A DNA stretch of 64,000 nucleotides, from assembly GCA_019894975.1 (NCBI GenBank), contig JAGXNO010000011.1, positions 1 through 64,000 of the forward strand. Reading direction: 5' to 3'. Below are positions 27,129-45,293 of this stretch, piece by piece (positions within the stretch are counted from its first letter, which is position 1; the number at the start of each line of letters is the position of its first letter). The notes beneath the pieces are model-generated. The model saw only the letters and a list, made by a program, of their open reading frames with translations. It did no database searches and was not told where the DNA came from. Origin of the DNA: Promethearchaeota archaeon (GTDB lineage: Archaea; Asgardarchaeota; Lokiarchaeia; Sigyniarchaeales; SOKP01). The position numbers were made by a program, and so were the translations under genes.

Positions 27129-27737
27129 ATGATGAATGACGTTAAAGACGGTAAAATATCTCTTGATGATATAGAATTACCCGAAAAGATTCCAGCAAAA
27201 TTCATTAATTCAAGAGTGATAATCTTTAATCCCCTTTTTGCTTCTTATCTTTATGTAAAGGGCATCAATGGTCAACGTTTTTTTGGATCACCATTAGGCA
27301 TAAATAAGCCACGATTAGAATATTTTTCAAAACCCTCAGAATTATCACTAATAGAAGCGTACTATTTATTGGAAAAAGAATATATATCGATTTTTGACGT
27401 CATAGAAAACAAAGAATTAGAAGCTAAAGACTTTTATGAAATAGCATTAAAAATCCATCATAAATTTGAAGAAAAATATAAAATCTATAAAGACTTACGA
27501 AATAAGAATTACGTACCTAGACCTGGATTAAAATTTGGGGCAGATTTTGTCGTATATCGTCTCGGACCGGGTCTTGAACATTCACTTTTCATGGTGCATG
27601 TTTTACCCCATGATTCTGAAATTACCGCAGTAGATATGGTACGAGCGGGAAGATTAGCAACATCAGTAAGAAAGAAATTTGTAATCGCCAATCCTATGAC
27701 AAATTCTTATTATTTCTTTGAATGGTTTAAACCCTAA
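27129..27737 (+). CDS. endA: tRNA-splicing endonuclease, catalytic (alpha) subunit
   Basis: ELSLIEAYYL, IYKDLRNKNYVPRPGLKFGADFVVY..GPGLEHS and RLATSVRKK; catalytic Tyr/His/Lys present. Confidence 0.95.
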   Translation: MMNDVKDGKISLDDIELPEKIPAKFINSRVIIFNPLFASYLYVKGINGQRFFGSPLGINKPRLEYFSKPSELSLIEAYYLLEKEYISIFDVIENKELEAKDFYEIALKIHHKFEEKYKIYKDLRNKNYVPRPGLKFGADFVVYRLGPGLEHSLFMVHVLPHDSEITAVDMVRAGRLATSVRKKFVIANPMTNSYYFFEWFKP

Positions 27738-39877: not shown

Positions 39878-40084
39878 AATAATTCTGTCTCAATATTTTT
39901 TCTACTGATATAATTATCAATAATTAGATTATTAAAAATTTAGTATTTGTAGATTATAAGTTAGAAAGAGTATATATTTGTTATACATGCAATTTTCTAA
40001 TGATTATTTCAAGGATAATTGATTTTAAGATCTAAATATGCTTTAATTTGGAGAATTAAGTTACATAATTTAAAGTGGGTAAAT

Positions 40085-40870
40085 ATGGAATATAAAGATT
40101 TAATTATTGAGAAACGCGATGATCAGATTGCTATTGTGACTTTTAATCGCCCAGAACAACTAAATACTCTCACTACTAATTTAATGACTGAAATCGAACA
40201 GCTAACTGAGGACTTTCAAAAGGATACAGAGACTCGTGTTGTGATTTTTACTGGGGCAGGAAGATTTTTTTCTGGGGGGAGAGATCTGACGGAACAAGGA
40301 GGTCCAGCTACGGTTCTAGGAAGACAAAGAGCAATTCAAAACGGTCCAAGAATGATATACAAACTTTATAATATGGATCAAATAACTATTGCAGCAATTA
40401 ATGGTGGGGCATTTGGAGGGGGTTGTTGTATTGCTAGTGCTCTTGATTTTCGCATTGGAGATGATAAATGTAGAGCGGGATTTCCTGAAAGTCGTTTAGG
40501 GATGAGTTTAAGTTGGAGAATACTCCCAATTGTGGTCCATCTAATTGGTCCTACATTTGCAAAAGAAATGACAATATTAGGGAAAAATAACGAAGCCCAA
40601 ACATTATTAAAATGGGGATTCTTAAATGAAGTAGTGCCAAAGGAAGACTTATTGGCACGAGCAATTGAAATAGCTAAGGATTATGCTGCAATGCCGCCCA
40701 TTCCAGCCCAAATGATTAAGAAAACGATTAACCACATTACTGGTGCTCTAGATCAAGCTATAATGCATATGGATATGGATCAACTTATGTTAACTCTTCA
40801 AACAGATGATTTGAAAGAAGGAGTTGCAGCATTTTTCGGGAAACGAGATGGAAAATTTAAAGGAAACTAA
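40085..40870 (+). CDS. Enoyl-CoA hydratase/isomerase (crotonase) family protein
   Basis: FNRPEQLN, FTGAGRFFSGGRDL, IAAINGGAFGGG, FPESRLG and EGVAAFFGKR. Start taken as ATG 40085 (track gives TTG 40019). Confidence 0.9.
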   Translation: MEYKDLIIEKRDDQIAIVTFNRPEQLNTLTTNLMTEIEQLTEDFQKDTETRVVIFTGAGRFFSGGRDLTEQGGPATVLGRQRAIQNGPRMIYKLYNMDQITIAAINGGAFGGGCCIASALDFRIGDDKCRAGFPESRLGMSLSWRILPIVVHLIGPTFAKEMTILGKNNEAQTLLKWGFLNEVVPKEDLLARAIEIAKDYAAMPPIPAQMIKKTINHITGALDQAIMHMDMDQLMLTLQTDDLKEGVAAFFGKRDGKFKGN

Positions 40871-41045
40871 TTTGCATCATATGATGGGGGAATAACTTTT
40901 TAAAATTACTCTCTATTTATTTTTACAAGAAGAATAAAAGACAATATATAGATCATTCTCAATAAAAAATATAATAAAGATAAAAGATAATTGTAAATAA
41001 GTAGTTCACTGTAATATAATTTAAACACAGTTTTGGCGTATAATA

Positions 41046-41723
41046 TTGGGAAAAATTCGTAAAAAATTAAAAGATTGGAAGCAATACTCAAAAATGGCTG
41101 ATTTGGGCATAATTGCCCGTCGAAAATTTTTTAACAATGCTTTTGATGGAGCTCTAACTTGTTCGGGAATTGTGAGTGGGATATTTATCATTTTTCTGAA
41201 CAACCCAAATCAATTCACCCCCCAAAATGTTATTGTCACTGGTTTTGCCACGGCTTTAGCTATAGGTATAAGTGGTCTTTGGGGTGCTTTTCTTTCTGAA
41301 GAGGCTGAACGAAAAAAGAAAGTTTCCGACCTGAAAAAGGAAATGGCGATAATAGAAGAAAATGAAGAAAGAGATGATGATTCACTCGAGGAGAAGAAAA
41401 TCAATAACAAGAAAAAAAGAAAGAAAAATAAAAAGAAAAAGACAGTATTGGAAAAAGCTGAAGACTTTGCAACAATTGTAGCGTCCTTAGTAGATGGGGG
41501 TGCACCAGTGTTAGGATCATCTTTACCTTTAATTCCATTTTTCTTTGGTATAGATTTAACTATTGGGCATTTTATCAGTTCCTACCTCATACTTGTAGGC
41601 TTACTTGTATATTTAGGTATCTATTTAGGAAAAATTTCAGGAGGGGGACGTATAAGGTATGCGTTGCACTTGGTTACAGCTGGGGTTGTGACTCTCCTGG
41701 TTTCAATACTACTTGGGATCTAA
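41046..41723 (+). CDS. VIT1/CCC1-like (TIGR00267-type) membrane protein
   Basis: ARRKFFNNAFDGAL, GISGLWGAFLSEEAER, SLVDG and PLIPFF; Lys-rich loop. Confidence 0.8.
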   Translation: MGKIRKKLKDWKQYSKMADLGIIARRKFFNNAFDGALTCSGIVSGIFIIFLNNPNQFTPQNVIVTGFATALAIGISGLWGAFLSEEAERKKKVSDLKKEMAIIEENEERDDDSLEEKKINNKKKRKKNKKKKTVLEKAEDFATIVASLVDGGAPVLGSSLPLIPFFFGIDLTIGHFISSYLILVGLLVYLGIYLGKISGGGRIRYALHLVTAGVVTLLVSILLGI

Positions 41724-41895
41724 AATGCCAAAATTATAGTACAAAATATTTAGAAAGAATGTTCGAAAAATTCAAGACTTACTCGAAAATAACAAATCTC
41801 TAGGGATAAGTTAAATTATTCATTGACATGTAATCACAAATTTTATTTTCTGCTTTTCATTTACCATTGTAACAATATTAAGGAGTAGTGATTTA

Positions 41896-42705
41896 TTGAA
41901 ATCTTTTATAGGAATTGACATAGGGTCGCTTGCAAGCAAGGTTGTGTTATTAAGTGAGGGAAAAATGATCGATTATCGAGTAGAAAGGTCTACATTCGAT
42001 TTTAAAAGAGTTGGTAATAATCTTTTTAATGACATCATAGAAAAAAATAATTTAAGTAAAGATGATGTATTCATTATGTCTACGGGTTATGGACGTAATA
42101 CTATTGATATAGCTGATGATAGAATCACAGAAATTACAGCCCATGCTCGTGGGGTACAATACTTTTTCCCAGAAGCTCATAGCGTCATAGATATTGGAGG
42201 TCAAGATTCCAAAGCAATACTTATCTCTAAAAAAACAGGAAGTGTTATGGACTTCCAGATGAATGATAACGATAATTTTAATTAAAAATTATTGTCAATA
42301 TGTGCTGCCGGTACCGGTAGGTTTCTGGAAGTTATGGCTCATGCACTTGAAGTTCCAATTGAAGAAATTGGAGGACTTGCATTAAATTCAAATAAACCAT
42401 CAGCAATAAGTTCCACATGTACGGTATTTGCTGAGAGCGAGGTAATATCATTATTTGCTAGAGGTACCTCAAAACATGATATAGCTGCGGGGATCCATAA
42501 ATCCATTGCGAGGAGAGTTGCAGGTATGGCTAAACGGATAGGAGTAGCTCCTTTATTGGTTTTTTGTGGGGGTGTAGCTAAAAATATAGCAGTTAAAAAG
42601 TTTTTAGAAGAAGAATTAGGATATGAAATTGTAATCCCAGATCATCCTCAACTTACTGGAGCAATAGGCGCTGCTCTAATTGCTCAAGAACATAATGGTA
42701 ACTAA
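41896..42705 (+). CDS. hgdC: 2-hydroxyacyl-CoA dehydratase activase (HgdC/BcrA-D-type ASKHA ATPase), split by a putative intron: join(41896..42269,42300..42705), 259 aa
   Basis: [35 protein letters not shown]|K|[31 protein letters not shown] and GAIGAAL. The two track ORFs are in the same frame, separated by a 30-nt insert. Confidence 0.9.
42270..42299 (+). other. Putative 30-nt bulge-helix-bulge (BHB) mRNA intron
   Basis: TGAT-AA|C-GATAATTTT-aatta-AAAATTATT-GTCA-AT|A: a 4-bp central helix, two 3-nt bulges and a 9-bp intron stem. It contains an in-frame TAA, and removal restores GAT AAA TGT (D-K-C). Confidence 0.8.
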
Positions 42706-42797
42706 TGGGATTTCTATTTAATTTTTATATCAATAAATTTTATGAGTAATTGACTCTTTTTTGATTAATAATTAAAATCTATTAATTTAACTTAAAA

Positions 42798-43928
42798 ATG
42801 GAAAATTTAGAGTTTTTATCAGAATATTACACATTACTAAAAGAAAAAAAAGAAGAAGGTAAAAAAGTCATAGCCTTCATATCTCATGATAATATTCCGG
42901 AGGAATTAATTGACGCTGCGGGGTTTATTCCTTTAAGATTGATCTTTGCGGGAAATGATGAATTAATGGATGCTAGTCATGATTTTTTGCCTCCATCAAC
43001 TTGCTCATTTGCTCAATCATGTATTGGAGCTTTTTCTATAAAACCCGACAACTTAAAGGTTTTAGATTTAATCGATTATATTATAATTTCAAATCATTGT
43101 GTTTCAGACATCTGTGCATCAGAAATAATTTCAAAATATTATGATATTCCTCAATTGAAATTTTATGTCTCATACACTAAAACGGAAAATAGTTTAAAAT
43201 ATTTTAAATTAGAATTAAATGATTTAAGGGAAAAGCTTGAAGAACTTAAAGGTTCTGTAATAGAAACTCAGGATTTAATGAATAGTATTGTAAAATATAA
43301 TAATTTTAAGAAAAAAATATCAGATTTAAGTAAATTAGCGATCCCAGGGGCTCAAAAATTAAAACATTTTCAAAGAGCGCTTTTAATTGGTCCTTATTAT
43401 CTTCCAGAATTAGAGAGTTTTCTCCAAACTCAAGAAGAGACTCAAATTAATGAAAAGTCAAAGCCTATTTTTTTAACTGGTTGCTCTATTTTCATCAATG
43501 ATTACTTGAATGATTTAATTGAGGGTGGTGGGGGAAATATAGTGTTCTTTGATACTTGGGTTGGATTTAATTATTACTCACAAATTTTTGATGGGGACTC
43601 AATAAATTCCTCGATTGATCCGATTGATCTATTAGTAGAGCGTTTTAAAAAGAATATATTTGGTGATCACTCTGTACCAAATTTCTTAGAAACTAAAATC
43701 TCGCAAATAGAAGAGTTTTATAAGAATTATAAAAACACTTCAGGGAAAAAAGTAGGAGTGATTAATCATATCATAAAATTTTGTGACCACATGTCAATTA
43801 TGTCCTCACATCTGAAGAAACAACTACAAGAGAAAGGAATTCAGGTGTTAAATTTAGAAAGAGATTATTCAAGGGCTAACAAGGGCCAATTAAGTACTAG
43901 GATTGAAGCATTCCTGGAGATGATGTAA
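42798..43928 (+). CDS. 2-hydroxyacyl-CoA dehydratase family subunit (HgdB/FldC-like)
   Basis: IPEELIDAAGFIPLR, PSTCSF, KFCD and LERDY...GQLSTRIEAFLEM. Confidence 0.88.
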   Translation: MENLEFLSEYYTLLKEKKEEGKKVIAFISHDNIPEELIDAAGFIPLRLIFAGNDELMDASHDFLPPSTCSFAQSCIGAFSIKPDNLKVLDLIDYIIISNHCVSDICASEIISKYYDIPQLKFYVSYTKTENSLKYFKLELNDLREKLEELKGSVIETQDLMNSIVKYNNFKKKISDLSKLAIPGAQKLKHFQRALLIGPYYLPELESFLQTQEETQINEKSKPIFLTGCSIFINDYLNDLIEGGGGNIVFFDTWVGFNYYSQIFDGDSINSSIDPIDLLVERFKKNIFGDHSVPNFLETKISQIEEFYKNYKNTSGKKVGVINHIIKFCDHMSIMSSHLKKQLQEKGIQVLNLERDYSRANKGQLSTRIEAFLEMM

Positions 43929-43931
43929 TAA

Positions 43932-45293
43932 ATGAGTTTAGTCGCAGATGAATTAATTAGGTTTTCTTCGGTGTTAAGGATCGCTTATAACTTTTTAACA
44001 GGTAGGGATTATCTAAAGAGAAAGAAGTTTAGAGAGAAAAAGAAATTGATTTCTATCGGTTTGCCTTTTTCAGATCTTGTGTATGGGTTTCCAGATTTAA
44101 TTCCAGTCTTTCCCATAAGAATGCACGAATTTAAAATTCATAAATATCTCACCTATTTAGGGTCAGCATCAAATATTTTTGGGTGGAACAGTGTTACAAA
44201 CTTCTTAGGTTTTGTAAAAGACCTTGGTATTAAAGATGTAAGTCAAACAGTTGATAATATTATCGAAGATGTAATTGATACTATAAATTACAAATATAAT
44301 GAAATGTATGATTTTGGTGAGGAATGTGGGATTCCGACTGATTTTTGTTATGGTGTTAAATCACTCTATGGGATGAATGTATCAAAAGGGAAGAATTGTG
44401 ATGCGAACTTGAATTATACGATTCGATGTAGTGCTTGGAATAAGTATTTAGAATCAATAAAAGCAATAGGGAATCCATCCAAACAAATATGGATCGAAAT
44501 ACCTCCCAGAAATATAGGAAATTCATTAGAACTTTTTATGGATAATATTGTTAAAGGAATAGAAGAATTAGAAGAAATTAGTAGTTATAATTATAGCAAT
44601 AATGGATTAAGAGATCATTTTCGAACTGCTAATCAAATTCACCAATCTTATAAAAAAATCATATATGAAATAGGCACTGCTGATTTTTATCCGTGTAATC
44701 CTGCTACTTTTAGTGAAATTCTTGCATTATTAAACATTAGTTTTCATGATTATAATTCAAATGCTACTCGATATAGAGACAACATCACTTCTTTATTAGA
44801 TGAAATGAAAGGGAGAGTAAATAAAGGAATTGGAATGGATGTATCCAAAAGACCTAAAATTCTTATAACGCCTATGTTTGGTGGTTGGGAACCAAAAACT
44901 CATGATATTATATATGAATTAGGAGGGAGGGCGTTATATGGAGATTGGGACCTTTTAGGGTTTTTAGATGATATACCTATTTCAACTAGATCTGATCCAA
45001 TTGAAGCCTATGCTCAATTCTTAATGGATGTAACTTCAGATGGTATAGGGTGCGATAACGATATATTAACAGATTCTTATGTCAGGTTAGCTAAAAATCT
45101 AAAGGCTGATGGGCTAGTTTTTGTTCAAGTGTTTGGTTGTCATTCTGTTTCAAATTGTTATACGATGCTAAAAGAAAAACTCCGTAGAGAGTTAGAAATC
45201 CCGAGTATCGCATTGAATTTTAATAAAATGGGGGAAAATATCGAACAAATTAAAACTCGTTTAGGAGCCTTCATGGAAATGTTTTCCTTGTGA
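43932..45293 (+). CDS. 2-hydroxyacyl-CoA dehydratase family subunit (HgdA-like), copy 1
   Basis: GIPTDFCY, IRCS, ADGLVF..VFGCH and QIKTRLGAFMEM; operon context. Confidence 0.8.
   Translation: MSLVADELIRFSSVLRIAYNFLTGRDYLKRKKFREKKKLISIGLPFSDLVYGFPDLIPVFPIRMHEFKIHKYLTYLGSASNIFGWNSVTNFLGFVKDLGIKDVSQTVDNIIEDVIDTINYKYNEMYDFGEECGIPTDFCYGVKSLYGMNVSKGKNCDANLNYTIRCSAWNKYLESIKAIGNPSKQIWIEIPPRNIGNSLELFMDNIVKGIEELEEISSYNYSNNGLRDHFRTANQIHQSYKKIIYEIGTADFYPCNPATFSEILALLNISFHDYNSNATRYRDNITSLLDEMKGRVNKGIGMDVSKRPKILITPMFGGWEPKTHDIIYELGGRALYGDWDLLGFLDDIPISTRSDPIEAYAQFLMDVTSDGIGCDNDILTDSYVRLAKNLKADGLVFVQVFGCHSVSNCYTMLKEKLRRELEIPSIALNFNKMGENIEQIKTRLGAFMEMFSL

Follow-up and report, generated by a model that had tools for sequence, protein, structure and literature searches.

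The question raised by this locus is whether a metabolic gene of an Asgard archaeon that carries a stop codon in its middle is a broken gene, or one whose message has to be spliced before it can be read. The window, by which is meant the whole stretch of 64,000 nucleotides that was analysed (contig JAGXNO010000011.1 of the Promethearchaeota archaeon assembly GCA_019894975.1), has two ORFs in the same frame in its ORF list, at 41896-42285 and 42292-42705, and both of these match Pfam PF01869 (BcrAD_BadFG). As the matches cover consecutive stretches of the profile (Table 1), the two ORFs are the parts of a single activase gene broken mid-way. The BcrAD_BadFG domain, the motif MNDKCAAGTG (after excision of the insert) and the adjoining HGD-D subunits of an HgdC/BcrAD-type activase are all present, and the host gene is, on its sequence, a 2-hydroxyacyl-CoA dehydratase activase of the HgdC/BcrAD family.

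Around the insert the DNA reads ATG AAT GAT AAC GAT AAT TTT AAT TAA AAA TTA TTG TCA ATA TGT GCT GCC. An initial annotation of the window had described 30 extra nucleotides at this point with an in-frame TAA (42283-42285), and both the letters and the coordinates were confirmed. When 42270-42299 are left out the reading becomes GAT AAA TGT (D-K-C), within a 780-nt frame that ends at the stop codon 42703-42705 and encodes 259 amino acids with the motif MND-K-CAAGTG; the annotation's claim that this is a normal size also held, 259 aa being the modal length among close homologues of the activase and that of most of them. The insert interrupts the MNDKCAAGTG motif within its Lys codon, a single codon ahead of the first Cys ligand of the Fe-S cluster, and the exon junction is unique in that a shift by one base is impossible in either direction. 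The reading preferred here, which is regarded as very probable, is that 42270-42299 is a BHB intron in the activase coding sequence that is spliced from the mRNA before translation. All the predictions at sequence level that the analysis could put to the test came out in its favour.

The fold put forward in the initial annotation was a BHB in which TGAT pairs with GTCA, with bulges AAC and ATA, a 9-bp stem and a 5-nt loop, and its geometry was borne out. The central helix UGAU/GUCA has 4 bp, three of them Watson-Crick pairs and one a U-G, and the two 3-nt bulges lie on opposite strands 4 bp apart, each 3' of its own central-helix strand, a placement in which the handedness is that of a true BHB. 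As had been claimed, the outer exon-exon helix is weak: it consists of an A-U, a mismatch, a G-U and a U-G, and with only some 2-3 weak pairs the BHB counts as relaxed. Relaxed forms are cleaved by EndA of the (alpha-beta)2 form, and the L1 loop has been linked to that cleavage (PMC5829648). The rule that the cut falls between bulge bases 2 and 3 has been stated for cbf5 (PMC2738675). A caveat applies to the energy of the structure, as the minimum-energy fold obtained with ViennaRNA in the window was an 11-bp hairpin at 42269-42295, which costs the central helix and a bulge, and the BHB was not obtained. For a 53-nt piece the ViennaRNA energies were -8.5 kcal/mol unconstrained and -5.7 kcal/mol when constrained to the BHB, which therefore lies 2.8 kcal/mol above the minimum. 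It is geometry and comparison, and not the energy of this one sequence, that carry the structure in the window.

Table 1. Coordinates of the interrupted activase gene, its predicted fold, associated genes, matching independent contigs and further introns. Positions are those of the window unless another contig is named.
Feature	Position	Strand	Remarks
Activase exon 1	41896..42269	+	TTG start; last two bases AA begin the Lys codon; PF01869 positions 1-135, E 1.5e-21
Predicted 30-nt BHB-type intron	42270..42299	+	missing at exact bounds in intronless orthologues; covarying counterparts in 10 other genomes
Activase exon 2	42300..42705	+	opens with Lys codon base 3, followed by CAAGTG; PF01869 positions 135-271, E 7e-36
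Central helix, 5' strand UGAU (exon 1)	42264..42267	+	pairs with 42294-42297, pairing kept in 11/11; one U-G to C-G change
5' bulge AAC	42268..42270	+	predicted cut 42269/42270
Intron hairpin	42271..42293	+	stem 42271-79 with 42285-93, 9 bp including one G-U; loop 42280-84
Central helix, 3' strand GUCA (intron)	42294..42297	+	invariant in 11/11 introns
3' bulge AUA	42298..42300	+	predicted cut 42299/42300, yields AA/A Lys codon
EndA alpha (catalytic) subunit	27129..27737	+	PF01974, 101 bits; 14.5 kb upstream of activase
Two HGD-D family dehydratase subunit genes	42798-43928, 43932-45293	+	PF06050, E 1.1e-52 and 3.5e-34
Contig X1	40000-43984		possibly the source sample
Contig X4	42092-43879		permafrost metagenome, separate study
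Contig X6	42247-42397		subsurface metagenome
BHB intron, AMP-dependent acyl-CoA synthetase	C101:40055-40085 (L053 1556-1586)	+	join MVKEWV/NLKPGM
BHB intron, UXS-like NAD epimerase/dehydratase	C164:24143-24173 (L054 1144-1174)	+	join YFGHV/NPVGP

Comparison with related genomes began from the observation that in a DNA search of 40 relatives most of the activase orthologues were 30 nt shorter. When the site was read in these 40 the MNDKCAAGTG motif was uninterrupted in 25, and inserts of other lengths were present in two. The closest orthologues, at 82-85% nucleotide identity, are without exactly these 30 nt. Inserts at the identical site were found in 11 genomes, seven of them in genus g1 (including the window genome) and four in genus g22 of the same family, the pattern search having covered 154 genomes of the order with no match to a reversed-pattern control; an uninterrupted motif, paralogues included, occurs in 134 of the 154. 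The same pattern run over 185,579 species gave a single further match, in Acidobacteria (L044), which was dismissed as chance as there is no ORF there. The eleven inserts are 27, 30, 30, 30, 32, 32, 32, 32, 33, 35 and 35 nt long, so that seven are frame-shifting. All of them share exon UGA(U/C)-AA on the 5' flank and have GUCA-A(A/U) at their 3' end, and when each bulge is cut behind its second base D-K-C is regained in every one, together with an open frame of 253-282 codons. The initial annotation had argued that the agreement of fold and protein consensus was hard to put down to random decay, and the ten further inserts at the same site, together with a cut rule that works throughout, uphold it; chance is excluded because ten independent sequences share the site. 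Of the eleven introns that of the window genome has diverged furthest, with AUA as 3' bulge where the others have AAA or AAG.

The sequences of the hairpins vary, with pairwise identities mostly of 45-70%, and each is still self-complementary. In a MAFFT alignment (A1) of the 11 inserts 82.1% of the cells in the named structure were paired, compared with 69.9 +/- 2.3 after shuffling, a value that none of 500 shuffles reached. When the partner strand was slid by 1-3 columns the pairing fell to 31-51%. Both-sided changes were found in eight of the nine hairpin pairs among the 11 sequences, and the stem changes are compensatory. The interior folding energy of the real introns averaged -6.0 kcal/mol as against -1.0 for chimeras made from the 5' half of one intron and the 3' half of another, in which the fold is destroyed. 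In 6/11 sequences folding without constraint already gives the BHB as the minimum-energy structure.

The distribution of the intron is patchy. When 36 activase sequences were placed in a tree, those with the intron did not group together but were dispersed, and parsimony requires seven changes, at least three of which are forced by well-supported branches. The window gene itself groups with the intronless G018, G002 and G021 (support 99/97). The intron may be old, with many precise losses, or the same site may have acquired it more than once.

The activase is not the only gene of this genome to be interrupted in this way, as at least two further such introns, both of 31 nt, lie in genes for an acyl-CoA synthetase and a UXS-like epimerase. 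The exons of the synthetase match positions 25-194 and 207-384 of the Pfam AMP-binding profile, and among the roughly 100 orthologous synthetase matches listed for the family nearly all are 31 nt shorter. Those of the epimerase match GDP_Man_Dehyd at positions 1-143 and 146-332; its intron is present in five genomes of the genus and exactly missing in about 48. Cuts after the second bulge base restore the conserved residues in these two genes as well. An orthologue of the synthetase in G017 is without the first intron and carries a different 30-nt BHB-like insert about 57 nt downstream (FHSFG/MTC; L061, minus strand), so that two species carry introns at separate sites of the same gene. The genome scan looked for strict BHB geometry at which excision would join one long open frame to another, and here the outcome for a survey already proposed in the initial annotation was divided. 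Overall there was no enrichment, with 485 matches against 468 for a mirror-geometry control, most of them operon junctions. The high-stringency tail held eight matches against three for the mirror control, of which three were confirmed by homology, and it was this tail that yielded the two further introns. The scan demands 80 open codons on each side and a near-perfect motif, and its yield is therefore a lower bound from which short genes are missed. BLAST of paralogues spanning the junctions was equally noisy (33 real, 29 control). A local scan of the same strictness around cdhC (C131) gave no candidate.

Two other candidates from the genome are recorded as observations in their own right. 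At C104:42152-42210 (minus strand, L056), near the end of the contig, lies a BHB candidate of 59 nt, rich in GC and with 11 bp in its inner helix, which may be an intron of an rRNA or other structural RNA rather than of a coding sequence. At C110:13074-13150 (plus strand, L057) a further paralogue of the acyl-CoA synthetase has a 77-nt candidate excision, for which paralogues align with the downstream exon and the upstream side is doubtful.

Among the alternatives, the one that survives best, though it is very improbable, is that the gene is decaying or inactivated and the insert is a DNA insertion scar, leaving either a pseudogene or two halves that are made separately as a split protein. Selection on the coding sequence bears directly on this. 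Median dN/dS among the intron-bearing genes was 0.084 (exon 1) and 0.070 (exon 2), ratios that are rough as dS is saturated among these genes, and by this measure both exons are under strong purifying selection at ~0.07. Past the inserts, including those that are frame-shifting, exon 2 keeps its conservation in the spliced frame, which a pseudogene would not explain, and no second lesion, whether stop or frameshift, was found in any of the 11 interrupted genes. An orthologue alignment, which the initial annotation had named as a check, thus gave exact presence or absence at the junctions, compensatory stem changes and no other lesions. The in-frame TAA, the existence of an intronless activase paralogue elsewhere in the genome (C138, 48% identity), the lack of the insert in the closest orthologues and a BHB that is not the most stable fold in the window would all suit a pseudogene, but both dehydratase genes downstream are intact, and a scar would not maintain a covarying helix. 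Neither a target-site duplication at the insert nor a second copy of the 40-nt motif was found in the genome. For a split protein the TTG at 42292 could start the second ORF, yet the start of a second half is not conserved, G012 having no in-frame start codon between the last stop of the insert and TGT, and the break would fall within the MNDKCAAGTG motif, inside the Lys codon. Given the divergent intron of the window genome and its intronless closest orthologues, poor splicing or recent inactivation may apply to the window lineage alone.

Translational bypassing, in which the insert is kept in the mRNA and the ribosome hops across it, is scarcely credible for these genes. Bypassing, which has been reviewed (PMC8211752), occurs in phage T4 gene 60 and with the mitochondrial 'byp' elements of Magnusiomyces, which are short hairpin inserts in coding sequences. 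The likeness lies in short hairpin inserts with stops in otherwise intact genes, and in 9/11 of the activase inserts a Lys codon stands before the hairpin (GAT AAA/AAG) and a second Lys before TGY, like a take-off and landing pair. Bypass elements stay in the RNA and need such matched codons, whereas these are absent in the window and in two other genes. Neither the window (GAT AAC ... TCA ATA TGT) nor G087 (GAT AAT) has them, so that a hop in either would miss the invariant Lys that the BHB cut rule yields in 11/11. In the synthetase AAA precedes the resumption codon against a take-off codon of GTA, and in the epimerase a hop from GTA to GTA would give V-Y-P where V-N-P is conserved. Moreover, although stop codons are present in the inserts, they do not consistently follow the take-off codon, and bypassing leaves the conserved GUCA strand, which pairs with the exon, and the bulges 4 bp apart unexplained.

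An artefact of assembly or sequencing, or else a translated insertion under another genetic code, has a negligible chance: the genome is metagenome-assembled with 8.6% estimated contamination and the insert is AT-rich and palindromic, but contigs from three studies (X1, X4 and X6) span it with zero differences, so that it is not an assembly error (a check that the initial annotation had also raised), inserts occupy this site in ten further assemblies, and the seven lengths that are not multiples of three rule out translation or a reassigned stop codon. Among RNA data, the single metatranscriptome run found, X20, matches only 40898-41396 and 44682-44902, with mismatches, and both stretches are outside the activase. 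Proteins of 259 aa that are 98-99% identical to exon 2 were considered as possible spliced transcripts and rejected, as the contigs that encode them, from their ~85% DNA identity and neighbouring genes, belong to intronless relatives.

The enzymes that splicing of this kind would require are encoded in the genome. The best solved relative of the EndA alpha subunit is 3p1z_B (E 1e-34), the chain that supplies catalysis in the Aeropyrum pernix heterotetramer; the catalytic Tyr, His and Lys have their counterparts in the alignment, and there is no gap in the N-terminal loop bearing the specificity lysine (NKPR against EKPR). A second PF01974 gene, on contig C55 (L002 1210-1812), aligns to the M. 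jannaschii enzyme and has Phe and Thr in place of the catalytic Tyr and His, and it looks like the structural beta subunit of EndA. RtcB is also encoded in the genome, on C90. Asgard archaea have an (alpha-beta)2 EndA with a broad-specificity L1 loop (PMC5829648). ARAGORN detected no more than 16 tRNAs, six with introns, although the genome is 95% complete, and no ARAGORN tRNA or Rfam family was found within 1-64000 of the window. The low count fits the reported heavy interruption of Asgard tRNA genes (bioRxiv 10.64898/2026.10.13.758758), most tRNA genes here being probably too interrupted for detection.

From the structure, junctions, selection and enzymes observed, we infer cleavage, ligation and a fate of the intron in the cell along the following lines. 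The activase gene would be transcribed together with the insert, and in the pre-mRNA exon UGAU would pair with intron GUCA to leave two opposite 3-nt bulges beside the 9-bp intron hairpin. The alpha/beta EndA of the genome would cleave after the second base of each bulge, and RtcB would ligate the exons and free the 30-nt piece, probably as a circle. The predicted exon join runs from ...ATGAATGATAA to ATGTGCTGCC..., leaving out 42270-42299, and the predicted peptide across the junction of the spliced product is ...FQMNDKCAAGTGR. The 259-aa activase, complete with its invariant Lys and the CAAGTG motif that binds the cluster, would be encoded by the spliced mRNA alone.

Published cases of such splicing in archaeal protein genes are very few. 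The pre-mRNA of cbf5, which encodes a pseudouridine synthase, has a BHB intron in Crenarchaeota that was confirmed by cDNA and by cleavage in vitro (Watanabe 2002; Yoshinari 2006; Yokobori 2009, PMC2738675). Introns in other archaeal protein genes were only predicted (PMC2738675), and by 2020 cbf5 was the only mRNA intron that the authors of the Haloferax 5' UTR study could set beside their own (PMC7714728). In the literature searched (PMC7714728, PMC2738675), endonuclease splicing of an archaeal coding sequence has so far been confirmed only for cbf5 of Crenarchaeota. The initial annotation knew of no precedent in this gene family or in Asgard archaea, and a full-text search of the accessible literature likewise found no paper on BHB introns in Asgard coding sequences or in the activase family.

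The activase intron resembles that of cbf5 in being a short BHB or relaxed BHB within a coding sequence that splits the codon of a key conserved residue, in its predicted cuts between bulge bases 2 and 3, in its patchy distribution with exact intronless relatives and in a host with a two-subunit, broad-specificity EndA. It differs in that the gene is for a metabolic activase and not an RNA-modification enzyme, in that it belongs to the Asgard archaea (Promethearchaeota) and is one of several interrupted genes, and in that splicing has been confirmed by experiment for cbf5 whereas for the activase it is deduced. With the BHB introns of archaeal tRNA and rRNA, including those at non-canonical positions, it shares the 3-nt/4-bp/3-nt motif, the size range and the presumed use of EndA and RtcB. 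Unlike these, it sits in an mRNA, with no tRNA body and with the weak outer helix of a coding sequence, and its excision would be needed for the reading frame and not for RNA structure. The 5' UTR of the HVO_1309 mRNA in Haloferax volcanii also has a BHB intron (PMC7714728), a likeness in that an mRNA serves there, as predicted for the activase, as a substrate of the splicing endonuclease outside tRNA and rRNA; that intron lies in an untranslated leader, however, and the protein code is uninterrupted.

The mRNAs of HAC1 and XBP1 in eukaryotes are cut at paired stem-loops independently of the spliceosome and are joined by a tRNA ligase, which in animals is RtcB. The endonuclease is IRE1 and not the tRNA endonuclease, and the reaction belongs to a regulated stress response in which splicing turns on production of the protein. 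The activase intron would share with them the logic of cutting and joining an mRNA and of a protein made only once this has happened, and the endonuclease is different. It has been considered whether mini-introns are repeatedly gained and lost at preferred sites of Asgard protein genes, with the activase intron acting as a splicing-dependent switch of the dehydratase pathway in the manner of HAC1/XBP1, an idea that is tentative and unlikely as a whole.

If the preferred reading, that of a spliced BHB intron, is right, then an ordinary metabolic gene of an archaeon from the group closest to eukaryotes would depend on mRNA splicing. Genes of this kind are wrongly called as fragments or pseudogenes by annotation software, so that intact Asgard pathways are undercounted in metabolic reconstructions. 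Protein-coding 'genes in pieces', presumably spliced by enzymes, in the lineage from which eukaryotes came would bear on the history of introns, of TSEN and of RtcB. The system is easily testable with a 50-nt RNA and two recombinant subunits.

On the plus strand of the window an operon-like run comprises an enoyl-CoA hydratase (40019-40870), a VIT1-like membrane protein, the activase and the two HGD-D subunits, which are identified as the enzyme served by the activase, and the order of activase and dehydratase genes is common to relatives. In relatives (L104) the operon is extended by genes for a GGACT (gamma-glutamyl cyclotransferase-like) protein and for a class I glutamine amidotransferase, and this extended operon suggests a link with gamma-glutamyl metabolism.
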